Shown here: in pieces, positions 2,603-30,370 of the stretch
Numbering within the stretch: position 1 is the stretch's first letter
Layout: the number at the start of each line of letters is the position of its first letter
Assembly: GCA_001761425.1 (NCBI GenBank)
Contig: CP012986.1
Span: 600,001-632,000 of the forward strand
Direction of reading: 5' to 3'
DNA: 32,000 nucleotides
DNA from: Candidatus Saccharimonadota bacterium
GTDB taxonomy: Archaea > Nanohalarchaeota > Nanosalinia > Nanosalinales > Nanosalinaceae
Made by a program: the position numbers and the translations under genes
The notes under the pieces: generated by a model
The model's database searches: none
Seen by the model: the letters and a program-made list of their open reading frames with translations, nothing else
What the model was told of the DNA's origin: nothing

Positions 2603-2652
2603 AAACAATTTGAAAGATCTTTTTAGACAAGTTTCTGTTCTTTCCCGAGTGA

Positions 2653-2660
2653 GTTTTAAA
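2653..2660 (+). promoter_or_regulatory. TATA-like box for the DUF502 gene
   Basis: gttttaaa lies about 28 nt upstream of the ATG at 2685. Confidence 0.45.
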
Positions 2661-2684
2661 CAGGAACAGGTTAAGTTATAGTTT

Positions 2685-3338
2685 ATGAGCAGGATTCAGG
2701 TTCTGAGGGAAAGCTTCCGCACAGGCCTTGTGATGCTCCTGCCGTTGCTTATCTCGATTATTGTGGTGAAGTTCCTGGCCGATCAGCTATTTCTTCTGGT
2801 AAATCCTCTAGTCAGAAGCACCAATCTAGCTGCCTATACAGGTAATATAGAGATAATAGCCCAGGCAGCGACCATCATTCTTGTAGTCGCAGCGATAACT
2901 TTCGCTGGCTACATCTCAAGCTACAGGGCCTCCGAGAGACTTTCAAAGAAGCTGGAGAAACTGGTCAAAGAAATACCTGTCTTCGGATCAGTCTACGCAA
3001 CAGTTGACAGGATAAGCGAATCATTCACAGGCGACAGCAAATTCAAAAAAATCGTCCTTGTCGAAATACCCTACGAAGAGGTCTACTCTCTAGGCCTTGT
3101 CACCTCAGAGGCACCTGAGCCGGTCAAGGAAGAGATAGGCGAAGACTACCAGTCGGTCTACCTACCTTACAGTCCTAACCCGACGATGGGAAGGCTCAGA
3201 ATGGTAAAGGAGGAAAAACTCCACGAAGTAGATATGAAAGTATCACAGGGAATGAAACTACTCCTCACAACAGGCATCACCTACCAACAGGAAGAAATGG
3301 AAGAAGAATTCGGAGACATCAGCGATAAACTCAAGTAA
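2685..3338 (+). CDS. DUF502 family membrane protein
   Basis: Two N-terminal TM helices, followed by the pattern EIPVFGSVY...KIVLVEIP...VYLPYSPNPTMGRLRMV that is characteristic of DUF502. Confidence 0.8.
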   Translation: MSRIQVLRESFRTGLVMLLPLLISIIVVKFLADQLFLLVNPLVRSTNLAAYTGNIEIIAQAATIILVVAAITFAGYISSYRASERLSKKLEKLVKEIPVFGSVYATVDRISESFTGDSKFKKIVLVEIPYEEVYSLGLVTSEAPEPVKEEIGEDYQSVYLPYSPNPTMGRLRMVKEEKLHEVDMKVSQGMKLLLTTGITYQQEEMEEEFGDISDKLK

Positions 3339-3379
3339 ACAGAGAAAAATATATAATACACAGCACACAAATACTTGGT

Positions 3380-3550
3380 TATGTTCAAGGCCCTCAAACG
3401 GTGTAACAGTATCTTCTCGAAGGCCTTAAATTCTATTTCCATGCTGACCAGTATTTCATCGAGGTCAGTAGGCTGGGAAAACCTGGCTTTTCCACTCCAA
3501 CTCAGGAGGAAAAGAACAGGACCCGGCCGAAACAGGAAAACTTTTTCTCT
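3380..3550 (+). ncRNA. Candidate structured ncRNA, locus B (related to locus A)
   Basis: Elements in order: TATA-like aatatataa (3349-3357), CAGCACACA (3361-3369), hairpin tgacc/ggtca (3445-3467), conserved core 3468-3509, and T-run ctttttctct (3541-3550). The 61-aa track ORF at 3375-3560 has no coding character. Confidence 0.3.
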
Positions 3551-3667
3551 GTACGTGTGAAGGCCTTTAACATCTGGAACTCCTACAATTTTCCTAAAAG
3601 CAGCTTCAACTTTATCTATACTGATTCAAACCGGTTTACAGCAAGTTTTATAACTTTATAACCCTAT

Positions 3668-4234
3668 TTGTATGCTGTGATTGACGAAGACGACCTTGGA
3701 GATCTTGAGACAATGCTTGAAAACAGTAAGCTTGATGTGGAGGATCAGGTTCGGAGAGCTGTTAACGAGGATTCCGATGGAACTATATCCGGAAACATGA
3801 ACCTGTACCACGGTATGCTCTCTGATTCAAGGAGCCAGGTAGAGAATCATCCGCGTCTCCTCGTCTACGCACACAGTCCCGGGTTCGAGGCCTACGAAAC
3901 TGGCATGGCACAGTTAACTGGCAGAAGGCCTGATGACGAGATAACTCCTCTGAGGAAAGGCAAACAGACCTACAGGAAGGACAGCGAAGTGAACACTGAT
4001 TACATCCCTTTGGAGGTTCTTCCGGAGGAGGCTATGCCTATTGGAGCGGTCTATCAGGGTGAAGAGGTTCCTGAACTAATTTTGGAGCATGAAGAACTTG
4101 AAATGCAGAAAGGCAGACAGGTAACTTTCCAGGTACATCCTTACGATCCTGGAGATATCACCGGCGCGAACTGGCAGGAAAACATCCAGAACTACGACGG
4201 AGACGAGGTCAACTTCTTCGGAACAGGCAGTTAA
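3668..4234 (+). CDS. Hypothetical acidic protein
   Basis: 188-aa ORF with the acidic composition seen in the other genes. TATA-like ttttataa/tttataac lies at 3646-3662. The start is uncertain: TTG at 3668 or GTG at 3677. No motif recognised. Confidence 0.6.
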   Translation: MYAVIDEDDLGDLETMLENSKLDVEDQVRRAVNEDSDGTISGNMNLYHGMLSDSRSQVENHPRLLVYAHSPGFEAYETGMAQLTGRRPDDEITPLRKGKQTYRKDSEVNTDYIPLEVLPEEAMPIGAVYQGEEVPELILEHEELEMQKGRQVTFQVHPYDPGDITGANWQENIQNYDGDEVNFFGTGS

Positions 4235-4270
4235 CCGTAGAAAGGCCTTTTCCTTCTCCATATTTCTTAG

Positions 4271-4279
4271 ATATAAAAC
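4271..4279 (+). promoter_or_regulatory. TATA-like box
   Basis: atataaaac lies about 30 nt upstream of the ATG at 4305. Confidence 0.4.
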
Positions 4280-4304
4280 TTTTCAATTATAGTTTCTGCT
4301 TTCC

Positions 4305-4925
4305 ATGAATCCGATTGAGGGCTTTGTAGAACGCTCCCATAGCCCTGAGAAAAGAGAGGATGAAAGAATAATAGAGGAAAGCAAACAGTTAAACGAGGAT
4401 GGGAACAGGAAAGTCTATAGAGGCCTCAGAAATGATTATCTGGTGCCTCAAAGGAAGAAAGATGAGATCAGACAGGTCTACAGGGATCTCAACGGTTCTG
4501 CCCGCGTTGTAGACATCTGGATCTTCACAGATGGTGAGCAGGACCTCGTGAAGAAAGACGACGTCCCGCAGAGTTTCGAGGACGCACTGGAAGAATACGG
4601 CCTGGACCACGTAGTCAGGGAATCGGTAGAGGTTTTCGAGAGCTTTGCTGAAAACGGTTATACGTACTGCGATCTATCGCCGGATAACGTAAGATTCCAG
4701 GACGGGAAGGCCCTGGCGATAGATTATCTAGATGAGGAAGCAGTTGAACCCCTAGAAGATAACGAAGAATTCTCCGCAGCAATGACATATCACCTTTTCA
4801 CAGAAGAACTGGCGGAGATAGCTGAACAGGACCGGGAAACAATTGAGAGAAAGATAGGCCGGTACTCAAAACATCTGGACGCAGAAGAATACACAGGCAA
4901 CCCTTTGATCGATTTTACTTTCTAG
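4305..4925 (+). CDS. Hypothetical protein, possible minimal RIO/Bud32-type kinase-like fold
   Basis: 206 aa. YTYCDLSPDNVRFQDGKALAIDYLD resembles a kinase catalytic loop (xDLxxxN) followed by a DFG-equivalent (IDY). The functional call is weak. Confidence 0.55.
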   Translation: MNPIEGFVERSHSPEKREDERIIEESKQLNEDGNRKVYRGLRNDYLVPQRKKDEIRQVYRDLNGSARVVDIWIFTDGEQDLVKKDDVPQSFEDALEEYGLDHVVRESVEVFESFAENGYTYCDLSPDNVRFQDGKALAIDYLDEEAVEPLEDNEEFSAAMTYHLFTEELAEIAEQDRETIERKIGRYSKHLDAEEYTGNPLIDFTF

Positions 4926-5244
4926 CCGGTCTGAACGAAATCCTGTAAAATCCTCGGTCATAACCTTTAACCGAGCGATCAGATACTCCATCAACCGGAC
5001 TTGAATCACGGTACTTCTTTTCCGGTTTCACAACCCACTCCCAGCTCTCCATAACACCTTCCTTTCGAGCATCCTCAAGAACAGACCTGACCTCCTGGGA
5101 AATCCTCCTGAGGTCCCCGGAGATCTCTACCACATCAGAACCGGATACAGGCCTGGAAAAAAGCTCTACACGCAGACTACCAGAAAACCGCCTAACAGCC
5201 TTCACACCTTCAAGGCCTTTCAGTTCGCCAACGACCTTCTCCAT
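4915..5244 (-). CDS. Hypothetical protein
   Basis: 109-aa ORF. On the reverse strand, ttttttatc lies about 30 nt upstream of its ATG. Its end overlaps the convergent gene by 11 nt. No motif recognised. Confidence 0.5.
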   Translation of the reverse strand: MEKVVGELKGLEGVKAVRRFSGSLRVELFSRPVSGSDVVEISGDLRRISQEVRSVLEDARKEGVMESWEWVVKPEKKYRDSSPVDGVSDRSVKGYDRGFYRISFRPARK

Positions 5245-5351
5245 GAACCAGTTTTAGACAACAACCGATAAAAAACACGCAAAGAGGTATATACAGTGAA
5301 AAGGCCTTCAGGATGAACTCTGGAAATTTTTTTCTGTAGACTCTGGTTTTG

Positions 5352-6803
5352 CTAGAGTTTTTCTCCTAGGACTGTTTCCTCTTCTAGGAGTGTGTCTACA
5401 GTCCTGTCGAATTCTCCGCTCTGTTCTTTTTCTTCCAGGATCTGGTCGGCTTTCTGCAGGGCTGCTACTTTAACTGCGGACTGGCCTACAGGCAGTTGAC
5501 CTCTTTCTGCGGAGTTAAGTATGTTGAGACTTTCCATGAGTTCTGCGAGCTTGTCTTGATCCTCTGAGAGGTTCTGCATAAGGTCATTGAGTTCGCTCCT
5601 GTCTACCATCGATTCTATGTTAGGTTCTGTTTCCTCGTCCACGAAGTTATGATAGAAGGTATCTATATCCATGACTTCTTCCATCTGTTCTGTTAGGCTG
5701 TCTGCCTTCTTGAGATCTCCGCTCAGGCCTCCCATAGGATCGTATCCCTTCCTCTTCTCGGCTACGTAACCTGCCAGCATTGTCGCTGCGTATTCGAGGC
5801 CTTTGTCAAAGTCCATGCCTGTGCCTGGATTTACAAGGTATGTTTGGCCAAGTGATTCGATCTGCGGTTCGATAGTTACAATCGGTGTTCCGATTCCTAC
5901 TTCGCTGGCTACGTGATAATGCCCGGCTTCGTGTACGGCAGTTTTCTCTCTTTCCTCCTTGCTCCGGGTGACATCGTTTTTCTGTTTCAGCCGATCCTGT
6001 ACCAGCTCCTGAGCCAGGTCTTCTGTGGTCACCTCTAGGTCTGATCCATCAGTGTCCATTTCCTTTCTCATCAATGCGTTGGTATAGGCCTGGTTCACAA
6101 GGGCCTCTATATCTGCGGGTGTTGCCCGATCGTTGAACATCATGGCCAGTGATTCTGCATCTACATCATGTTCATCGTATTTCCTGTCTACATAATGCTG
6201 GATTAGATGTTCACGCTGTTCCTGAGACGGTGTTGAGAAGTGATAATCTTCCAGACGGCCCTTTCTGAACAGCGCTCTATCCGAATCATTTGAACGAGAA
6301 GGTATCTCGTTAGCTGTGCCCATGAAAAAGACTCCAGGAGAACTCGAACCTCCTGCACCTGAAAGTTGCTGCATGAGCTTGGTAGCCTGATCGCTCTTGC
6401 TACGTCCATTAAGATCAAACACGTCATCGAACTCATCCTGAAACAGCAAAACAGGATTACCGGTCTCCTCAAAATACTCTGTCGCAGCACTATATACATC
6501 ATCCACCTCATTCGTCGGACTCCGGTCATTCCAGTCAAACTGTTGTGCATCTACAAAGGCAGCATCAGCCTCAGTAGCTGCATACCTCGACATCATGGTC
6601 TTTCCAGTACCACGTTTACCGACAAAGACAACGCCAGAAGGAAACTCCGCTCCCTGATCCTCAAAATACTCCAGATTATTAATATAGGTAGCCAACTTAT
6701 CAACAAAACCTTTAGTATGATCAAGGCCTACTATATCATCCGCTCTAACCTCCTCATAATCCGATTCCTCCAGAGGATCAGGCAGATCATAACCATCAGT
6801 CAT
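5352..6803 (-). CDS. FtsH-like AAA+ ATPase fused to an M41-type zinc metalloprotease, with no transmembrane region
   Basis: Motifs read from the translation: Walker A GKRGTGKT, Walker B LLFQDEFDD, an SRH-like TANEIPSRS..RALFRKGRLEDY, then TAVHEAGHYHV (HEXXH) and LAGYVAEK...LSGDLKKA. These follow the FtsH order. There is no hydrophobic N-terminus. Confidence 0.85.
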   Translation of the reverse strand: MTDGYDLPDPLEESDYEEVRADDIVGLDHTKGFVDKLATYINNLEYFEDQGAEFPSGVVFVGKRGTGKTMMSRYAATEADAAFVDAQQFDWNDRSPTNEVDDVYSAATEYFEETGNPVLLFQDEFDDVFDLNGRSKSDQATKLMQQLSGAGGSSSPGVFFMGTANEIPSRSNDSDRALFRKGRLEDYHFSTPSQEQREHLIQHYVDRKYDEHDVDAESLAMMFNDRATPADIEALVNQAYTNALMRKEMDTDGSDLEVTTEDLAQELVQDRLKQKNDVTRSKEEREKTAVHEAGHYHVASEVGIGTPIVTIEPQIESLGQTYLVNPGTGMDFDKGLEYAATMLAGYVAEKRKGYDPMGGLSGDLKKADSLTEQMEEVMDIDTFYHNFVDEETEPNIESMVDRSELNDLMQNLSEDQDKLAELMESLNILNSAERGQLPVGQSAVKVAALQKADQILEEKEQSGEFDRTVDTLLEEETVLGEKL

Positions 6804-6840: not shown

Positions 6841-7410
6841 TTATTTCGTATCAAGAATAAGTTCTGTCCTGTTCTTCAGCCTCCACTGAACGCTGTCACC
6901 TTCTTCCAGCTTCACGATCGCTGACAGTGTCTCCGGGATCTGAACCTTCTTGAAACCATCTTTCCCATCCTGGACTGAGGCCTCTCCAGCTCTATCGGAG
7001 GATCTGAAGCTGTAGGCCTCGATATTCTCCGCATCCATTTTATCCGTCACTTTTTCGTTTGAGTCAGTGAAAAGGATTTCTGTCCTGATCTCTCTGAAAT
7101 CTTTCAGCCATTTTAACTGGCTGTGCCTCAAGCCATCGCCCTCTCCTTTGACCTCTACGAAGCAGTAATCTCCGTTGTCGTCAAAAGCCAGGAAATCCGG
7201 TATGCCAGGCCTGAAAACGTTTCCAAGATCTTCAACTCCTTCCCTTCTGACTTTTTCGCTTACCAGGTCACAGGCCTTCGGAAACTTTTCCTGGAAATCC
7301 TCCATAACACCTGGACTGGTCCGTATTACATTGTCCCAGTTACTTTCCAGTACTTCTCTGGCAGCCTTTTCTGTCGGTGTCAGACCTGGTTTTTCCTCGA
7401 AAGGTATCAT
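6841..7410 (-). CDS. VRR-NUC (PD-(D/E)xK) nuclease fused to a C-terminal AbrB/SpoVT-like domain
   Basis: PGIPDFLAFDDNGDYCFVEVKGEGDGLRHSQLKWL matches the VRR-NUC core (PD...EVK...Q..W). The C-terminus KKVQIPETLSAIVKLEEGDSVQWRLKNRTELIL looks like an AbrB/SpoVT swapped-hairpin domain. Confidence 0.8.
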   Translation of the reverse strand: MIPFEEKPGLTPTEKAAREVLESNWDNVIRTSPGVMEDFQEKFPKACDLVSEKVRREGVEDLGNVFRPGIPDFLAFDDNGDYCFVEVKGEGDGLRHSQLKWLKDFREIRTEILFTDSNEKVTDKMDAENIEAYSFRSSDRAGEASVQDGKDGFKKVQIPETLSAIVKLEEGDSVQWRLKNRTELILDTK

Positions 7411-7547: not shown

Positions 7548-8411
7548 CTACTGCTGTCCTTCTTTCAGGTCCTCTATCTTTCCCTTGATCTCTTCACCCA
7601 TTTCCTCTCCGTTCATGTCTTCAAGGTTTCCTATATCAAAGCTGGAGAGGTCTATATCGCTCACGTTATCCAGGACCTGCTGGAGGCCTTTCTCGTTTTC
7701 CTCTGACTGGAATCCTCCGATCAGTTCTGTCGGGAAGGTTACAATGGTGGAGTTTTCCGCTGCTACAGAGTCCAGAGTCTGTAGCGTTCTCATGCGGTAG
7801 CCTTTGTCACCGATGATCTCTGAGGCCTGACGTAGCTTGACTGCTGCTTCCAGTTCTCCCTGTGCGTTCGTTCTCCTTGCTCTTCTGTCTCTTTCTGCTT
7901 CTGCCTGGGCTGCCATTGCTCTTTCCATCTTTTCCGGCAGATTTATGTTCTGTATCTCGACGTCCAGTACTCTCACTCCAAAGCTGTCGGTCTTATTGTC
8001 CAGCTGGCTTTTGATCTCGTCTCCGATCTCGTCTCTTCTTTGCAGCAGATCGTCCAGTTCCTTTTTACCGACAAGATCTCTTAAAATACTTGTAGCGTAG
8101 TTCAGTGTCTGTTTCTTGTAATCCCCTACATTTACGATCGCGTCCTTGACGTCCTCTGTATTCTCCTTTACCTCGAAAAAGACCACGCCGTCCACTGAAA
8201 CCGGGATGTTATCCCTAGTAATCGCCTCCTGCTTCATCACATCCACAGAATCCTCATAGACCGGCACAGTCACCGGCTTCTCAATAAAAGGTATCTTGAA
8301 ATGCAGGCCTGATTTTCTGCTTCTTGAATAGCTACCAAATCTCAGGACGATACTTCTCTCCCATTCATCGTTCGTGAAAAACGGAAAAGGCCCTGAAAGC
8401 GAAAAACCCAT
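7548..8411 (-). CDS. SPFH/band-7 (stomatin/prohibitin-like) protein
   Basis: ERSIVLRFGSY...GLHFKIPFIEK...EAITRDNIPVSVDGVVFFEV, then an A/E/R-rich coiled coil (MAAQAEAERDRRARR). No clear N-terminal TM helix. C-terminal acidic tail. Confidence 0.9.
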   Translation of the reverse strand: MGFSLSGPFPFFTNDEWERSIVLRFGSYSRSRKSGLHFKIPFIEKPVTVPVYEDSVDVMKQEAITRDNIPVSVDGVVFFEVKENTEDVKDAIVNVGDYKKQTLNYATSILRDLVGKKELDDLLQRRDEIGDEIKSQLDNKTDSFGVRVLDVEIQNINLPEKMERAMAAQAEAERDRRARRTNAQGELEAAVKLRQASEIIGDKGYRMRTLQTLDSVAAENSTIVTFPTELIGGFQSEENEKGLQQVLDNVSDIDLSSFDIGNLEDMNGEEMGEEIKGKIEDLKEGQQ

Positions 8412-8507: not shown

Positions 8508-9362
8508 ATGAGACAGAAAACCGTACTCCTCATCCTCATAACCCTTATCGCATCAGGATGCACATCGACAGAAAACACAGAAACTCCAGAACAGAAGATG
8601 CAAGAACTCGTAAACCAGAGCCAAAATACCACGTACCAGGTAAAATACACGGCTACAGGCCCTGAAGCACCTGAAAACACAGAAATCACGGTAAAAGGCC
8701 TTGAAGGAGGAGAAGTATACACTGTCGACAGGGAAACGCCGGGAGGAACTGTCTCGACAAAGGCCTATGTCCTGGAAGAAAAAACAGTTGTCTGCGGAAC
8801 CGATCCCTCCAGTGAAAGCGTTTCATGCACAGTCGGAGAAGGAGAAGTCATTCAGAAGATGCTCCAGATCGAAAAATGGACTCTGAAGAATCTGACCTAT
8901 ACCGGCGAAAAAAACATCTCTGGAAGAGTTTGTAAAGCCTTCTCAGCATCGGCAGAAAAAGCTGAAAGAAAAGGCCTTACATCTACAGAAACAGATCTGG
9001 ACTTCTGTCTTGACTTCGCCAACGGTTTTCCATCCGGCATCGAAGTAATCGGAGACGGAACCATACTGAACTTTACGGCGGAAAACGTAGAGACAAATAC
9101 TGGCGGAGAACTGGAACTGCCGAAAACCTTAGGCGTCACACCTCACTGCACTGACTCCTATGAAATCGATCTCACACCCCTGAAACAGGTGGAGGAGGCT
9201 GAGATAGAACTGAACAGTTACTCGAAGATTGTCAGGCTTCCCAAAAGGTTTGAAACACAGTCCTACAACATACCTGAGCAGAAGATAGACGAGGGAGAAA
9301 ACAACATCACAGTCAGAACAGAGGGAGAAATTAGTCACATAATCTGCTACAGAAGGCCTTAG
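8508..9362 (+). CDS. Putative secreted lipoprotein (hypothetical)
   Basis: The N-terminus MRQKTVLLILITLIASGCTS has a signal peptide with a lipobox-like LIASGC. The remainder is uncharacterised. Confidence 0.7.
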   Translation: MRQKTVLLILITLIASGCTSTENTETPEQKMQELVNQSQNTTYQVKYTATGPEAPENTEITVKGLEGGEVYTVDRETPGGTVSTKAYVLEEKTVVCGTDPSSESVSCTVGEGEVIQKMLQIEKWTLKNLTYTGEKNISGRVCKAFSASAEKAERKGLTSTETDLDFCLDFANGFPSGIEVIGDGTILNFTAENVETNTGGELELPKTLGVTPHCTDSYEIDLTPLKQVEEAEIELNSYSKIVRLPKRFETQSYNIPEQKIDEGENNITVRTEGEISHIICYRRP

Positions 9363-9404
9363 TAAGCGGATAAAAAATTACAGTTCAAAATTAGGAACCC
9401 AGAG

Positions 9405-9710
9405 ATGAACTCCGGGACCACAGTTCTTGAAGACGAAGACGAGGAGGAACAGGACAGCTGGAGGTACATGCATTTCCGGGGCCATGTCTCGGATCAGGAA
9501 GTCGAGAAAGCACTTGAACGGAAGTACAGCCATGTCTACAGTACTTTTGTCGAACCTGTTCTCGAAACAGGAGAAGAGTTCTCTGTCCAGGAACTGATGA
9601 ACGAGATAAGGCCTCCATACAGTGAGGATGAGATCCAGGGAGCGCTCCAGTACGGTGTTGAGAACGAAGGCCTTGAATATGTTTCCAGTGATTCTGTGAA
9701 GAAGATTTAA
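9405..9710 (+). CDS. Small acidic hypothetical protein, first gene of the Mre11/Rad50-like operon
   Basis: 101-aa ORF ending 6 nt before the next gene. The C-terminal half might be winged-helix-like, but that is a weak impression. Confidence 0.55.
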   Translation: MNSGTTVLEDEDEEEQDSWRYMHFRGHVSDQEVEKALERKYSHVYSTFVEPVLETGEEFSVQELMNEIRPPYSEDEIQGALQYGVENEGLEYVSSDSVKKI

Positions 9711-9716
9711 GGCTCG

Positions 9717-10766
9717 GTGAATAAATCTGGAGATGTGAGGATAGTTCATACTGCGGACGTCCATCTCTCACAGGACCACCCTGAGAGGACGGAAGCGCTT
9801 GAAGAGATCATAGAAATATGTGAAAAAGAAAAGGCCGAACTACTTCTGATCACGGGAGACCTCTTCGATGCAAACGTAAATATAGAAAATTTGAAGACCG
9901 AAGTAAGGCCTCTATTCTCGGAAAACAGTTTCCAGACACTTGTAATACCTGGAAACCACGATAGATCCGCCTTCAGACAGGAGGATTACTTCGGGGAAGA
10001 CATCGAAATCCTGCAGGACAAAACTTACTCACAGAAACTGTTCGACGATGTAAACATAGTATCACTGCCTTATACTAGTAAATCTTTCTCGGAGCTTGTT
10101 CAGCCTCTTTCAGAAGCCGTCGAGGAGGACAGGGAAAATATAATGATGATTCACTGTACACTGGCAGGAGCTTCAGGAGGCTTTGGAGAGGAGACAGAAT
10201 ATCTTCCTGTAAAGCCTTCGGAGATAGTTCAGACAGGTTTTGACTACGTTCTAGCCGGACACATCCATTCATCGGCGACAAGAAAAACCTTTGGACAAAC
10301 CACTTTCGCCTACTCCGGATCACCTGTCTCCATATCAAGCACCGAGATAGGAAAGAGAAAAATCTGGATCCTGGATACAGAAAAAGGCCTGGAAACCCGC
10401 GAAATCGACACAGAATACTTCATAAGAAAGGAAAAAGAGCTTCTGCCCGGAGAGGAAGAAAAAATAGAGGAGGAGATAGAAGAGGATCTGGAGGAAAAAG
10501 ACCTGGAAAAGGCCTCAGTTAAAGTAAAGATCCGGGGATTTACAGAGGAGAATGTAGAAGAAATTTCAGAAAGGGTCGAGAAAACACTGAAAGGCCTTGA
10601 TCCTGCGGAGGTCAGCGTTGACACATTGAATCTTGAATCTGTTTCCTCGATTGTAGATTCGGAGATCTACAGAGAGTTCAGGAGGAAGATGGAGGAAAAA
10701 AGCTTTGAAAACCCGGAGGAAGTCGAGGAAAAGTTTTTGAGAGGTCTTTCAAGACATGAGCGATAA
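9717..10766 (+). CDS. Mre11/SbcD-family metallophosphoesterase nuclease
   Basis: Calcineurin-like phosphoesterase motifs occur in order: HTADVHL, GDLFD, GNHD, IHCT, GHIH. Acidic C-terminal tail. The start is GTG at 9717 or GTG at 9735 (MRIVHTADVHL). Confidence 0.9.
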   Translation: MNKSGDVRIVHTADVHLSQDHPERTEALEEIIEICEKEKAELLLITGDLFDANVNIENLKTEVRPLFSENSFQTLVIPGNHDRSAFRQEDYFGEDIEILQDKTYSQKLFDDVNIVSLPYTSKSFSELVQPLSEAVEEDRENIMMIHCTLAGASGGFGEETEYLPVKPSEIVQTGFDYVLAGHIHSSATRKTFGQTTFAYSGSPVSISSTEIGKRKIWILDTEKGLETREIDTEYFIRKEKELLPGEEEKIEEEIEEDLEEKDLEKASVKVKIRGFTEENVEEISERVEKTLKGLDPAEVSVDTLNLESVSSIVDSEIYREFRRKMEEKSFENPEEVEEKFLRGLSRHER

Positions 10767-12726
10767 ACTGGAGATCAAGAAAGTGGATATAAGTCATTAC
10801 GGACCGGTTCATGACCTGGAACTGGATATAGGGGAGGGCCTGAACGCCTTCTACGGGAAGAACGAGTCAGGTAAGACATTGATCGTCGAGGCCCTGACAA
10901 AGATGCTTACAGAAGATTCCTCCGATTTTGACGGGATCGGCCGTGTCCCTCAACAGCCTAACGGCCTTCTAACCGTGGAAAAAGATGGCAGAGAGTTCGA
11001 TGTTTCCCAGGAAAGCCTTGGAGAGATATTCGGTGACGTGACTGCTGGAGATATCAGGAACGCGTTTGTTGTCCGGGACTTTGATCTCAGGCTTCCGGAG
11101 AGGGAAAACGATTTCGGCAACGGCGATTACTTCAAAGACGTGACCGACAGGGTTCTCGGCTCGAAGACCCAGAAAATAGAATCTCTGCGAAGTGAAATAT
11201 CGGATGTAGGCTTCCTGACCAACAAAACCAGTGAAGCAGGCCTTGAAAACAGGAAAAGTTCAGGAAAACTGGCTGACAGGAAAGAGAAAGCCGAAAGCCT
11301 GAGAAACGAGATCGAAGAATTCACGGATCAAGTCGAAGAGGAAGACCTTTACGGGAAGTACTCGAAGATAGACTCTCTGGAGAAAAAGATAAATTCGAAA
11401 CACAGAGAAATAAACGAGCTGGAAAACGCCAGGAAACAGAAAAAACACGGTAAAGGCCTTCAACTACTGAAAAATCTCAGACAGGCAGAGGAAAAAATCC
11501 AGGAAATCAAAAAGGAGAGACACGGATTCGAGGAACTGGACGAACTCAGGAAAAAAGCTGAGGCCTTCCAGGAAAAAGAGGTAAAGGTCCAGGGTTCAAA
11601 AACAGGAGCTCTGGTATCAGGCCTTGTATCTCTGAGTGCCTTCACCGCAGCCGCGTTCAACCCTGTACTCCTCGTTATCGGTGCAGCCGTTGTTTCCCTA
11701 TTCGTCGCAGCTTTCTTCGCTGAAAAATACAGGAGAAGTTCAAAGCAGGTCAGGAAGCAGGAGAAAGAAAAAGAAAAAATTATAGAAAATGCAGAGGCCA
11801 GAGAAATCGAAACTTCTTCAATACCTGGCGTTGTCAAAGCAGTGGACAGCTACGAGGAAGAACTGGATAGAAAAGAGAAAAAAGCCGACAAAAGGAAAAG
11901 CCAGACACTGGGCGAGCTTAAAGGCCTTTTCAACGCTGACCTGGAGAGCATAGAGGACTGGCAGAAGGAGCTGGACAGTTTCTCCAACAGTTTTGAATCT
12001 GTCGACCGACAGTTCGAAGAAGGAGACCTCGAAAAAGCTGAAAAAAACGTTGAAGAGCTTGAAACGAAGAAAGAAAGTCTTGAAGAAGACATAGAAGAAT
12101 ACGATGAAGTGATCGCCAATTTTGACACAGCTATTTCGGATGCGATAGCCGAAAGGTTCGTGGAGAACGAGGTAGTTGACCTGGCTACTGTCCAGGATCT
12201 TGATAAGGCCTTGAGGCAGCTAGATGAATTTATCTCGACTCTTGAAGACGGTGTTCAGGCCTCTGTTGATGCTATCAGTGTGCTTGAAGAGATGGAGGAG
12301 GAAGAGGAGGATGAGTTCAACAAAGTGTTCGATGAGGGCAGTTATGCTGTCGAAATGTTCAGGGAGGCGACAGACAGTAACTACACTGATATAAAGTATG
12401 ATAAGGCCTCTAGGAAGATCAAGGTCGTGCGTAAGGATGATAGAGAGCTTGAGCCGGAGGCCCTGAGTCAGGGGACGTATGATCTTCTGTACATGGCTGT
12501 CAGGTTGAAGCTTGCGAAAGAGATTCTTGGAGGTCCTGGCTTCCTGATACTGGATAATGCCTTCGTTCACTCGGATAGAGAAAGAGTGGAAAAAGAGATC
12601 GAGTTCCTGGAAAAACTTGAGGATGAAGGATGGCAGATAATCTATTTCACGTTTAGAGATGACGTAAGAAAGATTCTCGAGGAAAGAACAGAAGTTGAGG
12701 ACCTTGAAGGCCTTCAATTCCAGTAA
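10756..12726 (+). CDS. Rad50/SbcC-like SMC-family ATPase, atypical (hydrophobic hairpin in the coiled coil, no CxxC hook)
   Basis: Walker A GKNESGKT at the N-terminus, long K/E-rich coiled coils, and a C-terminal signature-like LSQGTYD plus Walker B FLILDNAF. It overlaps the upstream gene by 11 nt. Residues 284-322 are hydrophobic. Confidence 0.85.
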   Translation: MSDKLEIKKVDISHYGPVHDLELDIGEGLNAFYGKNESGKTLIVEALTKMLTEDSSDFDGIGRVPQQPNGLLTVEKDGREFDVSQESLGEIFGDVTAGDIRNAFVVRDFDLRLPERENDFGNGDYFKDVTDRVLGSKTQKIESLRSEISDVGFLTNKTSEAGLENRKSSGKLADRKEKAESLRNEIEEFTDQVEEEDLYGKYSKIDSLEKKINSKHREINELENARKQKKHGKGLQLLKNLRQAEEKIQEIKKERHGFEELDELRKKAEAFQEKEVKVQGSKTGALVSGLVSLSAFTAAAFNPVLLVIGAAVVSLFVAAFFAEKYRRSSKQVRKQEKEKEKIIENAEAREIETSSIPGVVKAVDSYEEELDRKEKKADKRKSQTLGELKGLFNADLESIEDWQKELDSFSNSFESVDRQFEEGDLEKAEKNVEELETKKESLEEDIEEYDEVIANFDTAISDAIAERFVENEVVDLATVQDLDKALRQLDEFISTLEDGVQASVDAISVLEEMEEEEEDEFNKVFDEGSYAVEMFREATDSNYTDIKYDKASRKIKVVRKDDRELEPEALSQGTYDLLYMAVRLKLAKEILGGPGFLILDNAFVHSDRERVEKEIEFLEKLEDEGWQIIYFTFRDDVRKILEERTEVEDLEGLQFQ

Positions 12727-21455: not shown

Positions 21456-24026
21456 GTGAAGACTCAAAAAGCAAAGAATCTTGACCAGGTCTACGAAGAA
21501 GTCAGAGAATATGACCTGGTTATCACCGCAGAGGCCTCGACAGCTGACTCACTGAAGCGGAGACTTGAAGAAACCAAACTCGGCAGATTCGCAGTCACAC
21601 CTCAGAGACTGGCATACGGCGACGAACTCGCAGAAGAAGATTTCAAGCGAGACATATTTCTCAAACTCGTCAAAGAAGAAGGCCTTCGCTGGAAACAGGC
21701 ATCTTACCTTCTCAGGAACGCTATAAGCTGCTGGAAAGAATGCGGAGACCTAGAAAAAGTGAAAGAACACGGCTTCACAGGCGAGGCAATGGAGAAAGTC
21801 ATAAAGATCCTGCAAAATACTGACAACCCGCTCAAAGCCCTGGAAAATTACAGAGTCCCGGAGGATAAAAATGTGGCGGTCCTGGCACCTTACCAGTTAA
21901 ACGAACTGGATAAAAAAATCCTGCCGGACGATTACGAGGAGATAGGCCTCTTCCTTGACGATGAACAGGATTTACCGGAGTTCAAGGTCTTTAATTCATC
22001 GAACGAGCTGATACAGGCCCTGAAAGAAAGTATAGAAAAAGTGGGGCCTCAGAACGCCGGTGTCGTCGTCGATCCTTCTTCCGGTTACCAGGCCTTGCTT
22101 GAGTCTGCTCTGGAGTCCTCTGATATTCCCTATCTGAAGCAGCAGGATCTTTCTGAGGACGAGGATCTGAGGACTTTTCTCTCCCTGATGCGTACAGGCC
22201 TCTCTTCGAAGCGTGTGCGTGTGAAAGATATAAGACCTGTTTTACAGGAGTTGAACGTGCCTGTCTCCTCCGTTGAGAGCGAGAAGTTTATCGAGGATCT
22301 TGAGGAGGGAAGGCTTCAGGAGTTCAGAGATGTTTTCTCAATGATGCAGCATCTGCCGTTCGAAGAAGTGGTGAGAAAGTACGAAGAGTTCACAGGGAGA
22401 CATCTCGGACCGGTGAAATCTATACTGAGTGAGCTTGACGTCGAAGATGAAATGGTCTCAGAGGCACGTATAAACCAAATAGAGTATTACCTAGACAGTT
22501 TCGCACCAAGCGAAGACATAGAGGAGGACGGGGTTCTGTTCGCCGATCCGAAAAAGGTCTCACGTGTTGACAGACCGGCAGTCTTTTTCGTTGGCATGGA
22601 TACAGAATGGAGACAGGAGCCTGAGAACCTGGCATGGATAGATCAGGAGAAAAGGGAAAAAGAGAATTTGAAAGACTTCAGATCGCTGCTTCAGAGCGGG
22701 AAACCGGTTTTCATGGTCCAGGACAGGGAGATGAACGAGGACATCAAGCCCTGCTTCTATCTCAACGAGCTGATCGATGAAGATTTCCAGAACTTCCGCC
22801 AGCTACCGCACAGACGTGTAAGGCCTGAAGAGACAGAGACAGAGACAGGCTTCGAACGCCAAGGCCTGGAAATCGAACAGGAAGAAGTGGAGGTCCTGAG
22901 CCAGTCCTCTCTCAATGATTTTGCGATGTCCCCACGCTACTACTACATCTCCAAACTTGTCTCCGACGTCGATGAAGAAGCCCTGGAAAAAGGAAACCTG
23001 TTCCATGACTACGCAGAGTTCTACGTCAACTATCCAGGCTTTATGGACGATAAAGGAGATGAAGAAGTCATCAGTTTCATGATGAACAGGATAAGGCCTT
23101 TTGCCGATGACCTGGATCTTGAGAAGCTGGAGACAGAGTTCAAGGTAGGCCTGAAAAATATCAGAGAGTTCATCAAGAACAGAGATATCTCGAGAGAGGA
23201 GATAGACGGCTACGAGAAAAAAGACAGGGATGAAAACGTGTTCTCAGAGGAGTACGGAAAACCGGTCCGGTCAAAGATAACAGAACTCTGGTTCAAGGAC
23301 AAGGATCTGGGAGGTAAGGGAAAAATCGATTTCCTCCAGGACCAGCAGAACCTTATCGATTACAAGTCAGGGAGAAGAAAATCTGAGAAAAAAGTCGTCA
23401 AGAAATCAAAAGTCGCTTTACACGGCGACGAGCAGTATCCTAACTTCCAGGCACCGATGTACCTAGCCTACCACCGCAAAAAGAACCCCGGAGAAAAAAT
23501 TAACTTCACATTCTTCCATTTCCTCGACAACCTCGGCGATGAGGTAACAGGTAAGGCCTCAAACGGCGATAACGTTGTAACAGTTACATACTACCCGGAA
23601 AAATTCAGCAAAGCGGTCGCATCCAACCAGGCCTTCGAACTACTGATAAAAGACGTTGCGAAGAGCAACGACCGGAGGAAAACCCTGGAAAAACTTGGCT
23701 GTCACCAGTTCAAAAAGTTCATGGAGGAAAACGAGTTCCCGAAGACGCATGACAAGAAAGAGGTTCTGGCCTCCAAGTTCGCCGAGGATTTCAAGGCCTA
23801 TGCGAAGAAAGAGGTAGGAGACTACAAATACGTGAAAAACGGGGTTAAATCCGCGTTAAAAAAACTCGTTGAGTTCCACACCGAGAACTATTTCAGGGAT
23901 GATATTGATCTCTTCGAGGAGTTTCTTGAGGAGAAGCTGGAGGAGTTGAACGATTACAGAGGAACCAGGTTCCCACTGGATGCAAAAGCAGATAACATAC
24001 CTGAAAGAGACCTGATAGTCAAATGA
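21456..24026 (+). CDS. AddB-like protein: degenerate helicase-like N-terminus plus C-terminal PD-(D/E)xK nuclease
   Basis: 856 aa. I found no Walker A. The C-terminal nuclease motifs are ELWF...GKIDFL...LIDYKSG...FQAPMYLAY (E, D, DxK, QxxxY). GTG start. It is ATGA-coupled to the helicase gene that follows. Confidence 0.7.
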   Translation: MKTQKAKNLDQVYEEVREYDLVITAEASTADSLKRRLEETKLGRFAVTPQRLAYGDELAEEDFKRDIFLKLVKEEGLRWKQASYLLRNAISCWKECGDLEKVKEHGFTGEAMEKVIKILQNTDNPLKALENYRVPEDKNVAVLAPYQLNELDKKILPDDYEEIGLFLDDEQDLPEFKVFNSSNELIQALKESIEKVGPQNAGVVVDPSSGYQALLESALESSDIPYLKQQDLSEDEDLRTFLSLMRTGLSSKRVRVKDIRPVLQELNVPVSSVESEKFIEDLEEGRLQEFRDVFSMMQHLPFEEVVRKYEEFTGRHLGPVKSILSELDVEDEMVSEARINQIEYYLDSFAPSEDIEEDGVLFADPKKVSRVDRPAVFFVGMDTEWRQEPENLAWIDQEKREKENLKDFRSLLQSGKPVFMVQDREMNEDIKPCFYLNELIDEDFQNFRQLPHRRVRPEETETETGFERQGLEIEQEEVEVLSQSSLNDFAMSPRYYYISKLVSDVDEEALEKGNLFHDYAEFYVNYPGFMDDKGDEEVISFMMNRIRPFADDLDLEKLETEFKVGLKNIREFIKNRDISREEIDGYEKKDRDENVFSEEYGKPVRSKITELWFKDKDLGGKGKIDFLQDQQNLIDYKSGRRKSEKKVVKKSKVALHGDEQYPNFQAPMYLAYHRKKNPGEKINFTFFHFLDNLGDEVTGKASNGDNVVTVTYYPEKFSKAVASNQAFELLIKDVAKSNDRRKTLEKLGCHQFKKFMEENEFPKTHDKKEVLASKFAEDFKAYAKKEVGDYKYVKNGVKSALKKLVEFHTENYFRDDIDLFEEFLEEKLEELNDYRGTRFPLDAKADNIPERDLIVK

Positions 24027-26764
24027 CAGAAGAATCACGTGAGGTCAGTCCTAACAGGCAACAGCAGAAACTTATAGATAACATTGAAGGCCTTTACCTG
24101 GTAAACGCCGGTGCAGGGACTGGAAAAACTTTTACTATAACTCATCGCTACATCGAGATACTGGATGAGGTGGAGCCGGAGGATATCTTCCTTGCTACCT
24201 TTACAAGGAACGCTGCGGACGAGATGGCAGAGAGGATTGTATCAGAATCTGATTACCAGGCCTCGGATATCTGGGATGCTCCGATCTCGACTTTTCACAG
24301 TCACTGCCAGAAGATACTGGAGAGAAACGGCTTTTCAGTGCCGGAGGAACTGGGAATCCAGGACAGCATAGAGAACATCGATGTCCTGGAAAGCCAGATA
24401 CGTGAACGCCAGGAATTCCACCGGTTCATGGACCGATTTATAGAAAACAACCCTGAGTACTCAAATTTCTACAGGATCTCACGTAACTACGATAATTTCC
24501 TGCACCTGATCAAATCCCTGGCCTCCAAAGGCATTATACCGGAGAAAGAAGGATGGTACCGCGACACAGAGGCCTTCCTCAACGGAGATAAAAAAGAGTT
24601 CATGGAGCTGTTCGAGGAAGCAAACAGGCCAAGACACAGCAGTAACGGCAAGAGACAGAGCGATCTTCGAAACAGGCTCTACAGCTACAGGTACAAGAAC
24701 TTTCCCGAAGACGCGCCGGAGGGAGAGGAAGTCCGCGGAGGATACGGTACAAAAACTGTGAGAAAGGATTTTGGGGAAAAGGCCTTTGAAGAGGATAGAG
24801 AAGAACTCAAGGCCTTTGTACATGATCTTTACTTCGAGTACGTCCGTTACTGTCTTTCAAGAAACTATCTTAATTTCTCGTTCCTGATGATGTTCGCCTA
24901 CGTCCTTCTGAGAGAAAATGAGTACGTCAGGAGGCAGGAGAGCTTCGAGTATATGATGATTGACGAGTTTCAGGATACTAACCCCCTCCAGTTCAAGCTT
25001 GCGTTGCTTCTGGCGGAGAGGCCTAATATAGCGGTTGTAGGTGACTGGAAGCAGAGTATTTACAGTTTCCAGTATGCTTCTGTAGAAAATATTCAGGAGT
25101 TCCGTCAGCGCCTGAAAGATTTCAGGGATGAGCTGAATCAGGAGAGGGAGAGAGTGAGTTTTTCCGTCGAAGGCGTCGAGGAGATCGAGCTGAGGAAAAA
25201 CTACCGCTCCACCCAGGACATACTGGACTATGCGGAGCAGAGTCTCCAGTTATCTGCGAATAAGTACGAGGAGGTCGATGAAAAAGATGTTACAGGCCTT
25301 GAATCTGAGATAGAGAATCAGGAGTCAAGTATTGAGAAATACATTGCTGAGGAAGAGGTAGAGGCCGTGCTGACAGAGATCCTTGAGATAGTTGACAACG
25401 AGGATTACAGGTATGGAGACGAGAACAAAAAGCTGGATTTCAGGGATATAGCAGTTCTGACCCGTACCCGTGGTTTCGGCCTTCAGCTCCAGGAGGAGGC
25501 CCGTGAACACGGTATCCCCGTCGCCTATGAGGGAGGTGTAGAACTTTTCAAGACGAATCCTGCGATCCTTCTCCTCGCGTGGCTCCGCGTACTTAACAAC
25601 GAGGATTCCAGGAAGGGCTGGGCTGTGATCCTTGAAGAAGCCGGTTACAGGCTTGAAGAAGCAAAGAAAATTCTCGATCCCGAGGAAGAAGAATACAAGT
25701 ATCCCGAGGATATGGAAGAGTTCCGGGAGCGTCTGGAAGGCCTTGAATCGATAAGTTCTGTAGCGAGAACGGTCTTCCACAGGTATGGATATTCGAACGC
25801 ATTCACTGACAAAATAATAGAAGTTCTAAGCAATGTTTTCACGTCAAGCTACATGAATCTAGGTGAACTGATCCAGTTCATACAGGAGAATATCGAGGAA
25901 AACGAGATATACGAGGTCGATTCATCGCGTAACAGGAATACCGTCAAAATACAGACGATACACGCAGCGAAAGGCCTTGAGTACCCTGCTGTCTTTATCT
26001 CGGACGTGAACCAGGGAAAGTTCCCGTCGAAGAACTCTGATTCCAAGGCTATCACCTATGCGGATCCTGTAGGCCTCAGGCAGAGAAAAATCTACAGGAA
26101 CGGAGGCCTTGCATTTGAGTATGATAACTGGAGGACTGAGATCCTCATGAAATGTCTTTCCGGGAACTACGATGAAGAGAGAAGGCTGATGTACGTCGCC
26201 ATGACCAGGGCACAGCAGCATCTCTTTATCACAGCGGAGAAGGATCGGGGATCAACGTTCTTTGAAGGCCTCAGTGGAGAACCGGAGCTGCTGGAAGCTG
26301 ATGTCGAGGATGTAAAAGTCGATAAAGAGGACCTGGAAGTATTCGAAGTGGAGAGTGTAAACTCAGAAAGAAATGAGCTGAGATCCGTCCATTCAGAACT
26401 TGATGTGGTTGAAGGAGATAAGGAAAAAGGCAACGGTCTACATGAGTTCGCTGAGGCCTATGCTAACGGAGAGGATGTAGAGGCCTCGAACAGCAGGGAA
26501 AAAGAGGTCAAGGAATTTATAGATTCCCTGGAAGGTGAGTTAGAGGCTGAAAAGCATGTCAGCATACCGGTTGACGGAAAAGTCTATGAAAGCGTGATAG
26601 ACCTGGTACACGTGACTGAGGAGAAAGTTGAGGTCATAGATTACAAGACGGACTCAAATCCTGATAACATGAAGGAGTACCAGAAACAGGTCGAATGCTA
26701 CAGGAAAGGCCTTGAACAAATATTTGACAGGCCTGTGGAGAAAAGGATAGTGACTCTGGAATGA
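24023..26764 (+). CDS. AddA/UvrD-family SF1 helicase with C-terminal PD-(D/E)xK nuclease
   Basis: Helicase motifs: GAGTGKT (I), MIDEFQDTN (II), VGDWKQSIYSFQYA (III), NYRS (IV), IHAAKGLEYPAVFI (V), LMYVAMTRAQQHLFI (VI). The C-terminal nuclease has GLHEFAE...IDLVH...VIDYKTD...QVECY. Confidence 0.9.
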   Translation: MTEESREVSPNRQQQKLIDNIEGLYLVNAGAGTGKTFTITHRYIEILDEVEPEDIFLATFTRNAADEMAERIVSESDYQASDIWDAPISTFHSHCQKILERNGFSVPEELGIQDSIENIDVLESQIRERQEFHRFMDRFIENNPEYSNFYRISRNYDNFLHLIKSLASKGIIPEKEGWYRDTEAFLNGDKKEFMELFEEANRPRHSSNGKRQSDLRNRLYSYRYKNFPEDAPEGEEVRGGYGTKTVRKDFGEKAFEEDREELKAFVHDLYFEYVRYCLSRNYLNFSFLMMFAYVLLRENEYVRRQESFEYMMIDEFQDTNPLQFKLALLLAERPNIAVVGDWKQSIYSFQYASVENIQEFRQRLKDFRDELNQERERVSFSVEGVEEIELRKNYRSTQDILDYAEQSLQLSANKYEEVDEKDVTGLESEIENQESSIEKYIAEEEVEAVLTEILEIVDNEDYRYGDENKKLDFRDIAVLTRTRGFGLQLQEEAREHGIPVAYEGGVELFKTNPAILLLAWLRVLNNEDSRKGWAVILEEAGYRLEEAKKILDPEEEEYKYPEDMEEFRERLEGLESISSVARTVFHRYGYSNAFTDKIIEVLSNVFTSSYMNLGELIQFIQENIEENEIYEVDSSRNRNTVKIQTIHAAKGLEYPAVFISDVNQGKFPSKNSDSKAITYADPVGLRQRKIYRNGGLAFEYDNWRTEILMKCLSGNYDEERRLMYVAMTRAQQHLFITAEKDRGSTFFEGLSGEPELLEADVEDVKVDKEDLEVFEVESVNSERNELRSVHSELDVVEGDKEKGNGLHEFAEAYANGEDVEASNSREKEVKEFIDSLEGELEAEKHVSIPVDGKVYESVIDLVHVTEEKVEVIDYKTDSNPDNMKEYQKQVECYRKGLEQIFDRPVEKRIVTLE

Positions 26765-29362: not shown

Positions 29363-30370
29363 ATGATTGTCCAGGATGCACGTGTTCTGCGCGATGACTT
29401 TATCCCGAAAGAGGTTGTCCACAGAGATTCCGAGGTACAGGAGCTTTCAAGAGCTCTGGAACCGCTGGTGGAAAATGAACAGGCGCGCAACATACTTCTG
29501 TACGGGCCTCCAGGAACAGGGAAAACCTGTCTTTCACAGTACGTCATGGAAAAACTGGAGGAGGAACTCCTTGACTTTAACTACATGTATATCAACTGCT
29601 GGGAAAACTACAACAGGTTCAAAGTCCTTTATAAAGCGTTAGAAGGAGTCGGGAAGACTTTACACGTCCACAGACAGTCAACACCTACAGATGAACTTTA
29701 TTCAAAGCTGAAAGATTACGACAGGGCACCTTATGTACTGATACTTGATGAGGTCGACCAGTTAGAGGATGAAAAAGTCCTTTACGATCTTCAAGGCCTT
29801 AACAACGTACATATCGTGATGATAGCGAACACCCAGGAATCTGTTTTCTACAACATGGATGACAGAGTCAGAAGCAGACTGATCGACTCGAAGAGAATCC
29901 AGTTCAAGGCTTACACCTCTGATCAGTTACAGGATATACTCATGGACCGTGCGGAGTGGGGTCTAGATTCTTCTGCTGTCGATTCTTCTCTTATCAAAAA
30001 GATCGCTCTCTCCTCGGAAGGTGATGCACGCATAGCGATTGGAGTTCTACGTGCAGCGGCCAGGATGGCTGAGGAAAGAGATAAGAAAGAGATTACCCGG
30101 GATATGATACAGGAAGCAGTTCCAGAAGCGAAGGACAACAACAAGAAGAAAAACGAAGAGAAACTGAACAACCACCAGGAGAAACTGTACGAAATAGTAA
30201 ACGAGGAAGAAGAGATCCAGCCCGGCGATCTCTACGAAAAATACAGAGAAGCCATGGATGAACCGAAAAGCGACAGGATGCTCAGAAAATACCTTCAGAA
30301 AATGGATCACTACAACCTGATAGAAGCCGAAGGAGAAGGTCGCTGGCGAAAATATCGGTCAGTGGAATGA
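29363..30370 (+). CDS. orc1: Orc1/Cdc6 replication initiator
   Basis: DDFIPKEVVHRDSE, LLYGPPGTGKT (Walker A), LILDEVDQL (Walker B), GDARIAIGVLR (sensor 2) and a C-terminal winged helix. At 335 aa it is short for the family. Confidence 0.93.
   Translation: MIVQDARVLRDDFIPKEVVHRDSEVQELSRALEPLVENEQARNILLYGPPGTGKTCLSQYVMEKLEEELLDFNYMYINCWENYNRFKVLYKALEGVGKTLHVHRQSTPTDELYSKLKDYDRAPYVLILDEVDQLEDEKVLYDLQGLNNVHIVMIANTQESVFYNMDDRVRSRLIDSKRIQFKAYTSDQLQDILMDRAEWGLDSSAVDSSLIKKIALSSEGDARIAIGVLRAAARMAEERDKKEITRDMIQEAVPEAKDNNKKKNEEKLNNHQEKLYEIVNEEEEIQPGDLYEKYREAMDEPKSDRMLRKYLQKMDHYNLIEAEGEGRWRKYRSVE

Follow-up and report, generated by a model that had tools for sequence, protein, structure and literature searches.

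What kind of DNA-processing complex is encoded by two overlapping nanohaloarchaeal genes, one for an Mre11-like nuclease and one for a Rad50-like ATPase whose predicted coiled coil is capped by a hydrophobic hairpin? The genes lie in a stretch of 32,000 nt (contig CP012986.1 of assembly GCA_001761425.1, positions 600,001 to 632,000 of the forward strand), referred to here as the window, and coordinates are those of the window unless stated otherwise. The locus is a new archaeal member of the known, under-studied SbcE/SbcF (YhaN/YhaO) family, and its novelty as a locus is low. The two products probably form a nanohaloarchaeal SbcE/SbcF-family module, a membrane-anchored Rad50/Mre11-like complex for the processing of DNA ends.

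The nuclease and the ATPase

Three tightly packed genes were found in the list of open reading frames (ORFs) on the forward strand. The first encodes an acidic protein of 101 aa (9405-9710), the second an SbcF/YhaO-like Mre11-family phosphoesterase of 349 aa with a GTG start, taken as the nuclease subunit (9717-10766), and the third an SbcE/YhaN-like Rad50-type ATPase of 656 aa (10756-12726). The nuclease was assigned from its ORF, Pfam match, motifs and match to YhaO, and the ATPase from its ORF and from hhalign and BLASTP comparisons with Listeria YhaN. A gap of 6 nt (9711-9716) separates the first two genes, while the nuclease and ATPase genes share 11 nt (10756-10766; ATGAGCGATAA) and, from this arrangement, appear to be translationally coupled. 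The same three genes were called independently on public contigs 98% identical to the window. A first-pass annotation of this DNA had reported the three ORFs with their gap and overlap, an Mre11/SbcD phosphoesterase with all metal-binding motifs, a Rad50-like ATPase without CxxC, and in it an apolar two-helix segment (residues 284-322) split by Asn-Pro; all of these are present in the sequence or borne out by the comparisons given below.

The nuclease matches the Pfam Metallophos domain (E 1.4e-16) and carries all five Mre11/SbcD phosphoesterase motifs (D14-x-H16, G47-D48, G79-N80-H81-D82, H146, and G181-H182-x-H184). Its scores against NCBIfam are 59.5 bits for TIGR00619 (SbcD; cut-off 77.65) and at most 47 bits for the Mre11 equivalogs (cut-offs 500-600). 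On these sequence comparisons, the nuclease would be a member of the Mre11/SbcD superfamily and not an orthologue of canonical Mre11 or SbcD.

The N- and C-terminal lobes of the ATPase are predicted to adopt the fold of a Rad50-type ABC (ATP-binding cassette) head. The family profile, searched against solved structures, gave the heads of Pyrococcus furiosus Rad50 as its best matches (E 4.6e-20), and the top Foldseek match of the AlphaFold2 (AF2) model was Rad50 (7zr1_C of entry 7zr1, E 1.7e-11), with JetC and LmuB ranking after Rad50. The Walker A motif, G34-K-N-E-S-G-K-T41 (10855-10878), has the family-typical Glu in the P-loop. Alignment A1 shows no variation at G34, N36, E37, G39, and K40, and in almost every one of 251 scanned members of the family the tripeptide that follows the initial Gx is NEx (pattern GxNE[SA]GK[ST]). 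The signature motif is L570-S-Q-G-T574 (12463-12477), with L570, S571, and T574 invariant in the same alignment, as are D600 and D607 of the Walker B motif and D-loop (F596 to D607, FLILDNAFVHSD; 12541-12576). No Glu follows the Walker B Asp; in the 241 members where this motif could be located, the residue at this position is D in 184, N in 28, and E in 13. As this Glu is missing, ATP hydrolysis is suggested to be slow or unconventional, and substitution by the invariant P-loop residue Glu37 is a speculation.

Between the lobes, the AF2 model (overall predicted local distance difference test, pLDDT, of 78) places two coiled-coil arms with high confidence. The N-terminal arm (aa 172-283; 11269-11604) comprises helices 172-195 and 198-300, with pLDDT >90 over residues 180-270. 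The C-terminal arm (aa 323-524; 11722-12327) comprises helices 307-348, 356-392, 399-410, 424-463, and 481-524, and is longer by about 90 residues. Within it, W402 is nearly invariant in alignment A1, and the extra length with this residue may represent a folded-back element or a nuclease-binding site.

The SbcE/SbcF assignment was examined by direct comparison with a Listeria monocytogenes record of 2.9 Mb (NZ_CP030101.1, locus L008), found by tblastn of a plasmid collection. The ORFs of L008 are, in order, yhaO-like (411 aa), yhaN-like (907 aa; 2631-5354 of that locus, with a 4-nt overlap), yhaM-like (328 aa), and a prsA-like lipoprotein gene, which we take to be the classical arrangement of the Bacilli. 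The window nuclease matches Listeria YhaO (BLASTP E 3e-11), and the window ATPase matches Listeria YhaN by BLASTP in three collinear pieces: the C-terminal head (36% identity, E 2e-13), the P-loop region (E 2e-5), and the hairpin with its flanking arms (E 4e-4). The family profile aligns with Listeria YhaN at an hhalign probability of 99.5% (E 1.2e-22). The first-pass annotation had pointed to a likeness to YhaO/YhaN, and this comparison supports it.

Since the head resembles Rad50, the pair could in principle be the lineage's own orthologous Rad50/Mre11, evolving fast, shortened in a reduced genome and deprived of its hook. Rad50 is indeed the nearest solved relative of the ATPase head, DPANN genomes are reduced and fast-evolving, and weak NCBIfam matches to Rad50 and Mre11 exist. 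However, the best of the Rad50 equivalogs reaches 41.9 bits (NF003034, cut-off 700) and others reach 33.8, 21.9, and 15.9 against roughly 1000 (cut-offs 700-1087), the nuclease falls as far short of Mre11 as noted above, and the specific motifs and the hairpin are common to YhaN-type proteins of bacteria, Halobacteria, and Asgard archaea. Halobacteria (e.g., Haloferax volcanii) also carry canonical Mre11-Rad50, so that the family forms a paralogous line of its own and did not arise by local degeneration. Canonical orthology was rejected on the NCBIfam scores and the absent hook, and local decay of a true Rad50 is considered highly improbable. Assignment to the archaea-specific SMC-related protein (ASRP, NF045487; SMC, structural maintenance of chromosomes) was also rejected, at 34.6 bits against a cut-off of 300. 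No canonical Rad50-like ORF was found in any of the homologous loci retrieved, whole genomes not having been scanned.

The apex hairpin and its distribution

The ATPase is rich in charged residues (38.6%) and contains no cysteine, and a CxxC hook is therefore impossible. In place of the hook, a hydrophobic helical hairpin is predicted at residues 284-322 (11605-11721), as judged from hydropathy, a charge-free run, a turn in the AF2 model, and conservation in the family; it is the predicted apex of the coiled coil and a predicted membrane anchor. Residues 283-322 form a run of 40 residues free of D, E, K, and R. Shuffling the sequence 20,000 times gave longest charge-free runs of 12 residues on average and 32 at most, and never 40, with an analytic expectation of about 2e-6. 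The segment is split at N302-P303 into two apolar helices of 18 and 19 residues, with Kyte-Doolittle peaks of 1.57 and 2.79 in 19-residue windows, and the AF2 model likewise places a turn at 301-306 between the continuous helix 198-300 and helix 307-348. Helix 2 has a Kyte-Doolittle mean of 2.79 and a Hessa-scale sum of –2.6 kcal/mol, compared with a protein-wide median of +26 kcal/mol for 19-residue segments; the values for helix 1 are considered in the next section. The sequence and the model thus agree with the proposal of the first-pass annotation that a hydrophobic helical hairpin stands where Rad50 has its zinc hook.

This hairpin had been thought peculiar to the window protein, which is not the case. 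The closest homologues (43-98% identity, all 646-658 aa) belong to Nanohaloarchaeota, namely Candidatus Nanosalina sp. VS9-1, Candidatus Nanohalobium, and nanohaloarchaeal metagenome-assembled genomes (MAGs). Three homologues were named 'uncharacterized protein YhaN' by JGI, and a haloarchaeal member, Halru_2855 of Halovivax ruber, bears the UniRef label 'YhaN AAA domain-containing protein'. A profile search of 1.84 billion cluster representatives retrieved 2,151 proteins at E ≤ 1e-30, and the best 150 are 640-920 aa long. A central 19-residue window with a Kyte-Doolittle mean of at least 1.6 was present in 146 of 148 representatives, near 46% of the length in the examples inspected.

A scan of one genome per prokaryotic species gave at least 282 loci with a confirmed relative, and the best 79 were surveyed by script. 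Archaea among these 79 include Nanohaloarchaeota, MAGs of Thor- and Lokiarchaeota, a Hadarchaeota MAG, and many Halobacteria (Natronomonas, Haloparvum, Halorubrum, Halosimplex, Halovivax, Salinarchaeum, and a Halorientalis plasmid), and the bacteria include Bacillota, Fervidobacterium, Leptospira, Chloroflexota, Gemmatimonadota, WOR-3, and Halobacillus. The survey yielded 74 full-length ATPase ORFs. All but one of them (73 of 74) have a central hydrophobic segment about 46% along their length, which in 67 spans at least 30 residues, i.e., two helices. No CxxC was found mid-protein in the 73 hairpin-bearing full-length homologues, and the sole CxxC is in locus L087, whose protein lacks the hydrophobic centre. 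An Mre11-like gene lies immediately 5' of the ATPase gene in at least 54 of the 74 loci, usually with a 4-nt overlap. The spread of the hairpin variant, which the first-pass annotation had asked about, thus covers both archaea and bacteria, together with the adjacent nuclease gene.

In a neighbour-joining tree of the head domain (without support values), the sequences of Bacilli form the most distant branch, and those of Asgard archaea, haloarchaea, and bacteria interleave. One haloarchaeal copy of the pair is plasmid-borne (locus L029, Halorientalis pallida plasmid p4). The interleaving in the tree suggests horizontal transfer within the family.

The layout was described in 2009 for SbcE (YhaN) of Bacillus subtilis, which lacks a CxxC motif and has a 'unique central domain' shared by every homologue. 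This domain has a hydrophobic first half and a conserved proline, and when produced by itself in Escherichia coli it was completely insoluble (PMC2811018). The hairpin is accordingly the defining architecture of a known family, and its novelty had been overestimated at first. For the window, what is gained is the right annotation and the insight that the hairpin is a family trait.

Another reading is that the pair is an anti-virus or anti-plasmid defence system in which an SMC-like ATPase acts with a nuclease, as in Lamassu, Wadjet, or Gabija; the first-pass annotation had named defence among the possible roles. Weak PADLOC matches were obtained to LmuB (24.6 bits, E 3.2e-6, full length), JetC, AriA, and PtuA, and to LmuC for the 101-aa protein (E 0.026); in addition, JetC and LmuB appear among the Foldseek matches after Rad50, and the H. 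pallida copy is on a plasmid. Against this, all PADLOC scores are low, the pair is chromosomal and keeps its syntenic place in all nanohaloarchaeal loci examined, and neither an LmuA-type effector nor a kleisin accompanies it. When 399 neighbouring ORFs of about 75 loci were clustered in search of a conserved third partner, no cluster covered more than five loci, and all clusters reflect lineage synteny. Moreover, genetics in B. subtilis point to repair and transformation (PMC2811018), and the sole 'plasmid' and 'phage' matches in the databases were mislabelled chromosomal yhaN genes of Listeria and Staphylococcus. A defence role is thus unsupported, given the weak PADLOC matches, the kept synteny, the missing third gene, and the lack of genuine phage or plasmid copies in those searches, and it is rated very unlikely. 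Membership in Lamassu was rejected on the weak LmuB and LmuC matches, the missing LmuA, and the lack of a conserved third gene.

The mislabelled records merit a remark of their own. The Listeria reference NZ_CP030101.1, a chromosome of 2.9 Mb, is filed as a plasmid in PLSDB, and unannotated 'phage' contigs of Listeria and Staphylococcus (OR84xxxx-OR85xxxx) match the C-terminal part of yhaN, with coordinates and identity that do not differ from those of the chromosomal copy in Listeria. Such records are database artefacts that can mislead inferences about mobility.

Proposed membrane anchoring of the complex

A mechanism that probably applies to the pair can be outlined. An antiparallel coiled coil of about 110 residues (~16 nm) would rise from the Rad50-type ABC head, and the hairpin at its apex would enter the cytoplasmic membrane from the cell interior and leave both of its ends in the cytoplasm, which is its most likely role. 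Two hairpins would probably pack together and thereby serve both as an anchor and as an apex-to-apex dimeriser in place of the zinc hook. The nuclease dimer would sit on the ATPase heads, some 16 nm below the membrane, as may be expected from the yeast two-hybrid interaction of SbcE with the nuclease SbcF (YhaO) of B. subtilis (PMC2811018). The heads would then process DNA ends near the membrane, whether of a broken chromosome or of DNA entering the cell. SbcE of B. subtilis has roles in the repair of double-strand breaks and in transformation, and SbcE and SbcF accumulate at the competence pole (PMC2811018); by analogy, the window pair may act in DNA repair or DNA uptake. A two-hybrid interaction of SbcE with the transmembrane kinase YabT was also reported (PMC4205851).

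We infer insertion of the hairpin into the membrane from composition alone, and the most serious competing explanation is that the hairpins of two ATPases bury their apolar faces against each other in a cytoplasmic four-helix bundle, a hook equivalent that dimerises the complex and never touches the membrane. Dimerisation at the apex is common to all SMC/Rad50 relatives, and the insolubility of the SbcE central domain fits an exposed hydrophobic surface as well as a membrane segment (PMC2811018). Yet the hairpin helices have hydrophobic moments of 0.43 and 0.25, compared with 0.8-1.2 in the helices of the true coiled-coil arms, and are therefore apolar all round and not amphipathic. The hydrophobic core of about 36-69 residues is nearly charge-free across the family, and its flanks are enriched in basic residues, with K+R fractions of 0.24 and 0.25 on the two sides compared with 0.16 elsewhere (239 homologues). 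The position and composition of the hairpin are kept across archaea and bacteria, while its sequence is poorly conserved and drifts freely. Such an apolar surface is also very unlikely in a soluble protein of a proteome this acidic (24% D+E). Overall, a soluble hook equivalent appears unlikely.

Several observations weigh against a membrane-anchored SbcE/SbcF complex and partly favour the soluble bundle. Fluorescent SbcE-YFP (yellow fluorescent protein) foci were described as lying on the nucleoid and moving from pole to pole within minutes (PMC2811018), unlike what is expected for a static integral membrane protein. The confidence of AF2 over the hairpin is low (pLDDT <50), and helix 1 is just marginally hydrophobic (18 residues, Kyte-Doolittle mean 1.69, Hessa-scale sum +2.2 kcal/mol). 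The Walker B motif lacks the catalytic Glu, which leaves the ATPase activity uncertain. Finally, likeness to YhaN of the Bacilli extends only to the head lobes and the general layout, and the match to PF13514 (AAA_27, the AAA domain of YhaN) is limited to the P-loop region: the window ATPase scores 22.0 bits at a cut-off of 22 over profile positions 3-50 of 206, and its homologues score 22.7-45.4 bits, again over the first ~50 positions, whereas Listeria YhaN aligns with the entire domain at 81.8 bits, its only Pfam match.

In the literature, one functional study of the SbcE/YhaN family was found, and searches for YhaN/SbcE as a transmembrane protein, for Rad50-like proteins anchored in the membrane, and for Rad50 of Nanohaloarchaeota gave nothing. 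The word 'transmembrane' is absent from the 2009 SbcE paper (PMC2811018), and no later paper on the question was found. Among the solved structures searched, none for the YhaN family was found, and the archaeal forms, short and free of cysteine, might lend themselves to structural studies. If the hairpin is truly embedded in the membrane, SbcE/YhaN proteins would be Rad50-like processors of DNA ends permanently tied to it in a large family, which would bear on the handling of incoming DNA and of breaks near the membrane.

Surrounding genes and relation to known systems

The first-pass annotation had treated the three tightly packed genes as an operon. Their packing holds, and the conserved core consists of the nuclease and ATPase genes only. 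Homologues of the 101-aa protein were found only in close relatives, at loci L006, L007, and L009 (Candidatus Nanohalobium), each directly 5' of the nuclease gene; in Candidatus Nanosalina VS9-1 and the P0023 lineage, this position is taken by other genes and the 101-aa gene is not there. A large-database search with the 101-aa protein gave two matches only. Thus, only the nuclease-ATPase pair is the conserved module, and the 101-aa gene is a lineage-restricted accessory outside it; a conserved three-gene operon was rejected, as the 101-aa gene is confined to a subclade. In the window, the gene is probably co-transcribed with the pair as the first gene of the transcription unit, because the gap of 6 nt leaves no room for a separate promoter ahead of the nuclease gene and because an A/T-rich box (ATAAAAAATTA, 9370-9380, forward strand), read by eye as a possible archaeal TATA box, lies ~30 nt 5' of its ATG. 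The AF2 model of the 101-aa protein, built from an alignment of three sequences, has a pLDDT of 76 and the topology H-b-H-H-b-b, with a disordered acidic N-terminal tail followed by a winged-helix domain. Its Foldseek matches are generic winged helices, the best being the winged-helix domain of Pyrococcus abyssi Rpa2 (E 0.02).

Directly 5' of the 101-aa gene, a 284-aa protein (8508-9362, forward strand) has an N-terminal signal sequence ending in LIASGC, which resembles a lipobox; it has no Pfam or NCBIfam match and is conserved in loci L006 and L088. Within 3 kb of the pair, genes for a VRR-NUC nuclease (6841-7410) and an SPFH/Band-7 membrane-scaffold protein (7548-8411) lie on the reverse strand. 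Both also occur within 3 kb of the pair in loci L002/L003, L006, and L088, and a VRR-NUC homologue is near the pair in L012. These genes are found on different sides of the pair, and none is near it in L001 and L007, so that their proximity may reflect loose linkage or just shared synteny. Further genes in the window encode an AAA ATPase of 483 aa (5352-6803, reverse strand), which is FtsH-like by sequence with a sub-threshold Peptidase_M41 match (22.5 vs 29.9 bits), and Orc1/Cdc6 (29363-30370, forward strand), the latter overlapping a DUF123 gene (30367-30777, forward strand). Given the Orc1/Cdc6 gene, a replication origin may be nearby. The absence of HerA and NurA from the neighbourhood, as first reported, was upheld, as no HerA or NurA Pfam domain was found in the 23 scanned window ORFs of at least 90 aa, nor in the gene tables of loci L001-L007.

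Downstream on the forward strand, an 856-aa PD-(D/E)XK nuclease (21456-24026) overlaps by 4 nt a 913-aa UvrD/PcrA/AddA-like helicase (24023-26764). The helicase scores 187 bits against AddA_Gpos, below the cut-off, and the two genes are syntenic in loci L007 and L088. By sequence, they resemble an end-resection pair of the bacterial AddAB/RecB-like type, here in a DPANN archaeon, which is a hint that the break-processing kit of this lineage may be largely bacterial-type.

A much broader proposal, which we regard as distinctly unlikely, is that in Nanohaloarchaeota the SbcE/SbcF-like complex is the only machine of the Mre11/Rad50 class and, with the AddAB-like pair 9 kb downstream, replaces Mre11-Rad50-HerA-NurA. 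With its membrane tether, the complex would enable these obligate ectosymbionts to capture DNA that enters from the haloarchaeal host where the two cells touch, and to process it. The whole family of thousands, including Asgard members, would be a distinct integral-membrane class of Rad50-like complexes, with a transmembrane hairpin taking over the function of the zinc hook.

Among known systems, LmuB of Lamassu and JetC of Wadjet share with the window pair SMC-like heads with coiled coils acting with a nuclease, along with weak profile and fold matches. The window pair differs in that it has no kleisin or effector partner and its locus is neither mobile nor variable; to our knowledge, a central membrane-type hairpin is no described feature of the LmuB and JetC families. 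Canonical archaeal Rad50-Mre11 (with HerA-NurA) is closer, with its Rad50-type ABC heads, Mre11 motifs, two-gene operon, and antiparallel coiled coil bearing an apex element. However, the window ATPase has an apolar hairpin at its apex instead of a zinc hook (0 Cys), much shorter arms, and a Walker B motif without Glu, misses the equivalog cut-offs by more than 650 bits, and has no HerA or NurA nearby.

The closest system is SbcE/YhaN (COG4717) with SbcF/YhaO, known from B. subtilis and other Bacilli, in which the gene for an Mre11-like phosphoesterase overlaps that for an SMC/Rad50-like ATPase, by 11 nt in the window and 4 nt in Listeria. Several differences separate the window pair from that of the Bacilli: it belongs to an archaeon whose genome is reduced, it is not followed by a yhaM-type exonuclease gene, and its ATPase has 656 aa compared with 907-967 aa in Listeria and Halobacillus, so that the arms of the window ATPase are shorter. 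The order of parts is nevertheless shared, from head through heptad arm, hydrophobic centre, and second heptad arm back to head, and CxxC is absent from both; the centre is broken at N302-P303 here and holds a conserved proline in SbcE, while that of Listeria YhaN (a 42-residue charge-free centre at relative position 0.50, no CxxC) contains no proline. Walker A reads GKNESGKT in the window and GENEAGKS in Listeria (common pattern GxNExGK[ST]), the signature LSQGT and LSQAT (LSQxT), and the Walker B motif and D-loop FLILDNAFVHSD (FLILDN..., FVHxD) and IIIDDGFVHFD, both without Glu. The motifs GxNExGK[ST], LSQxT, and FVHxD set this family, and the window ATPase with it, apart from Rad50.

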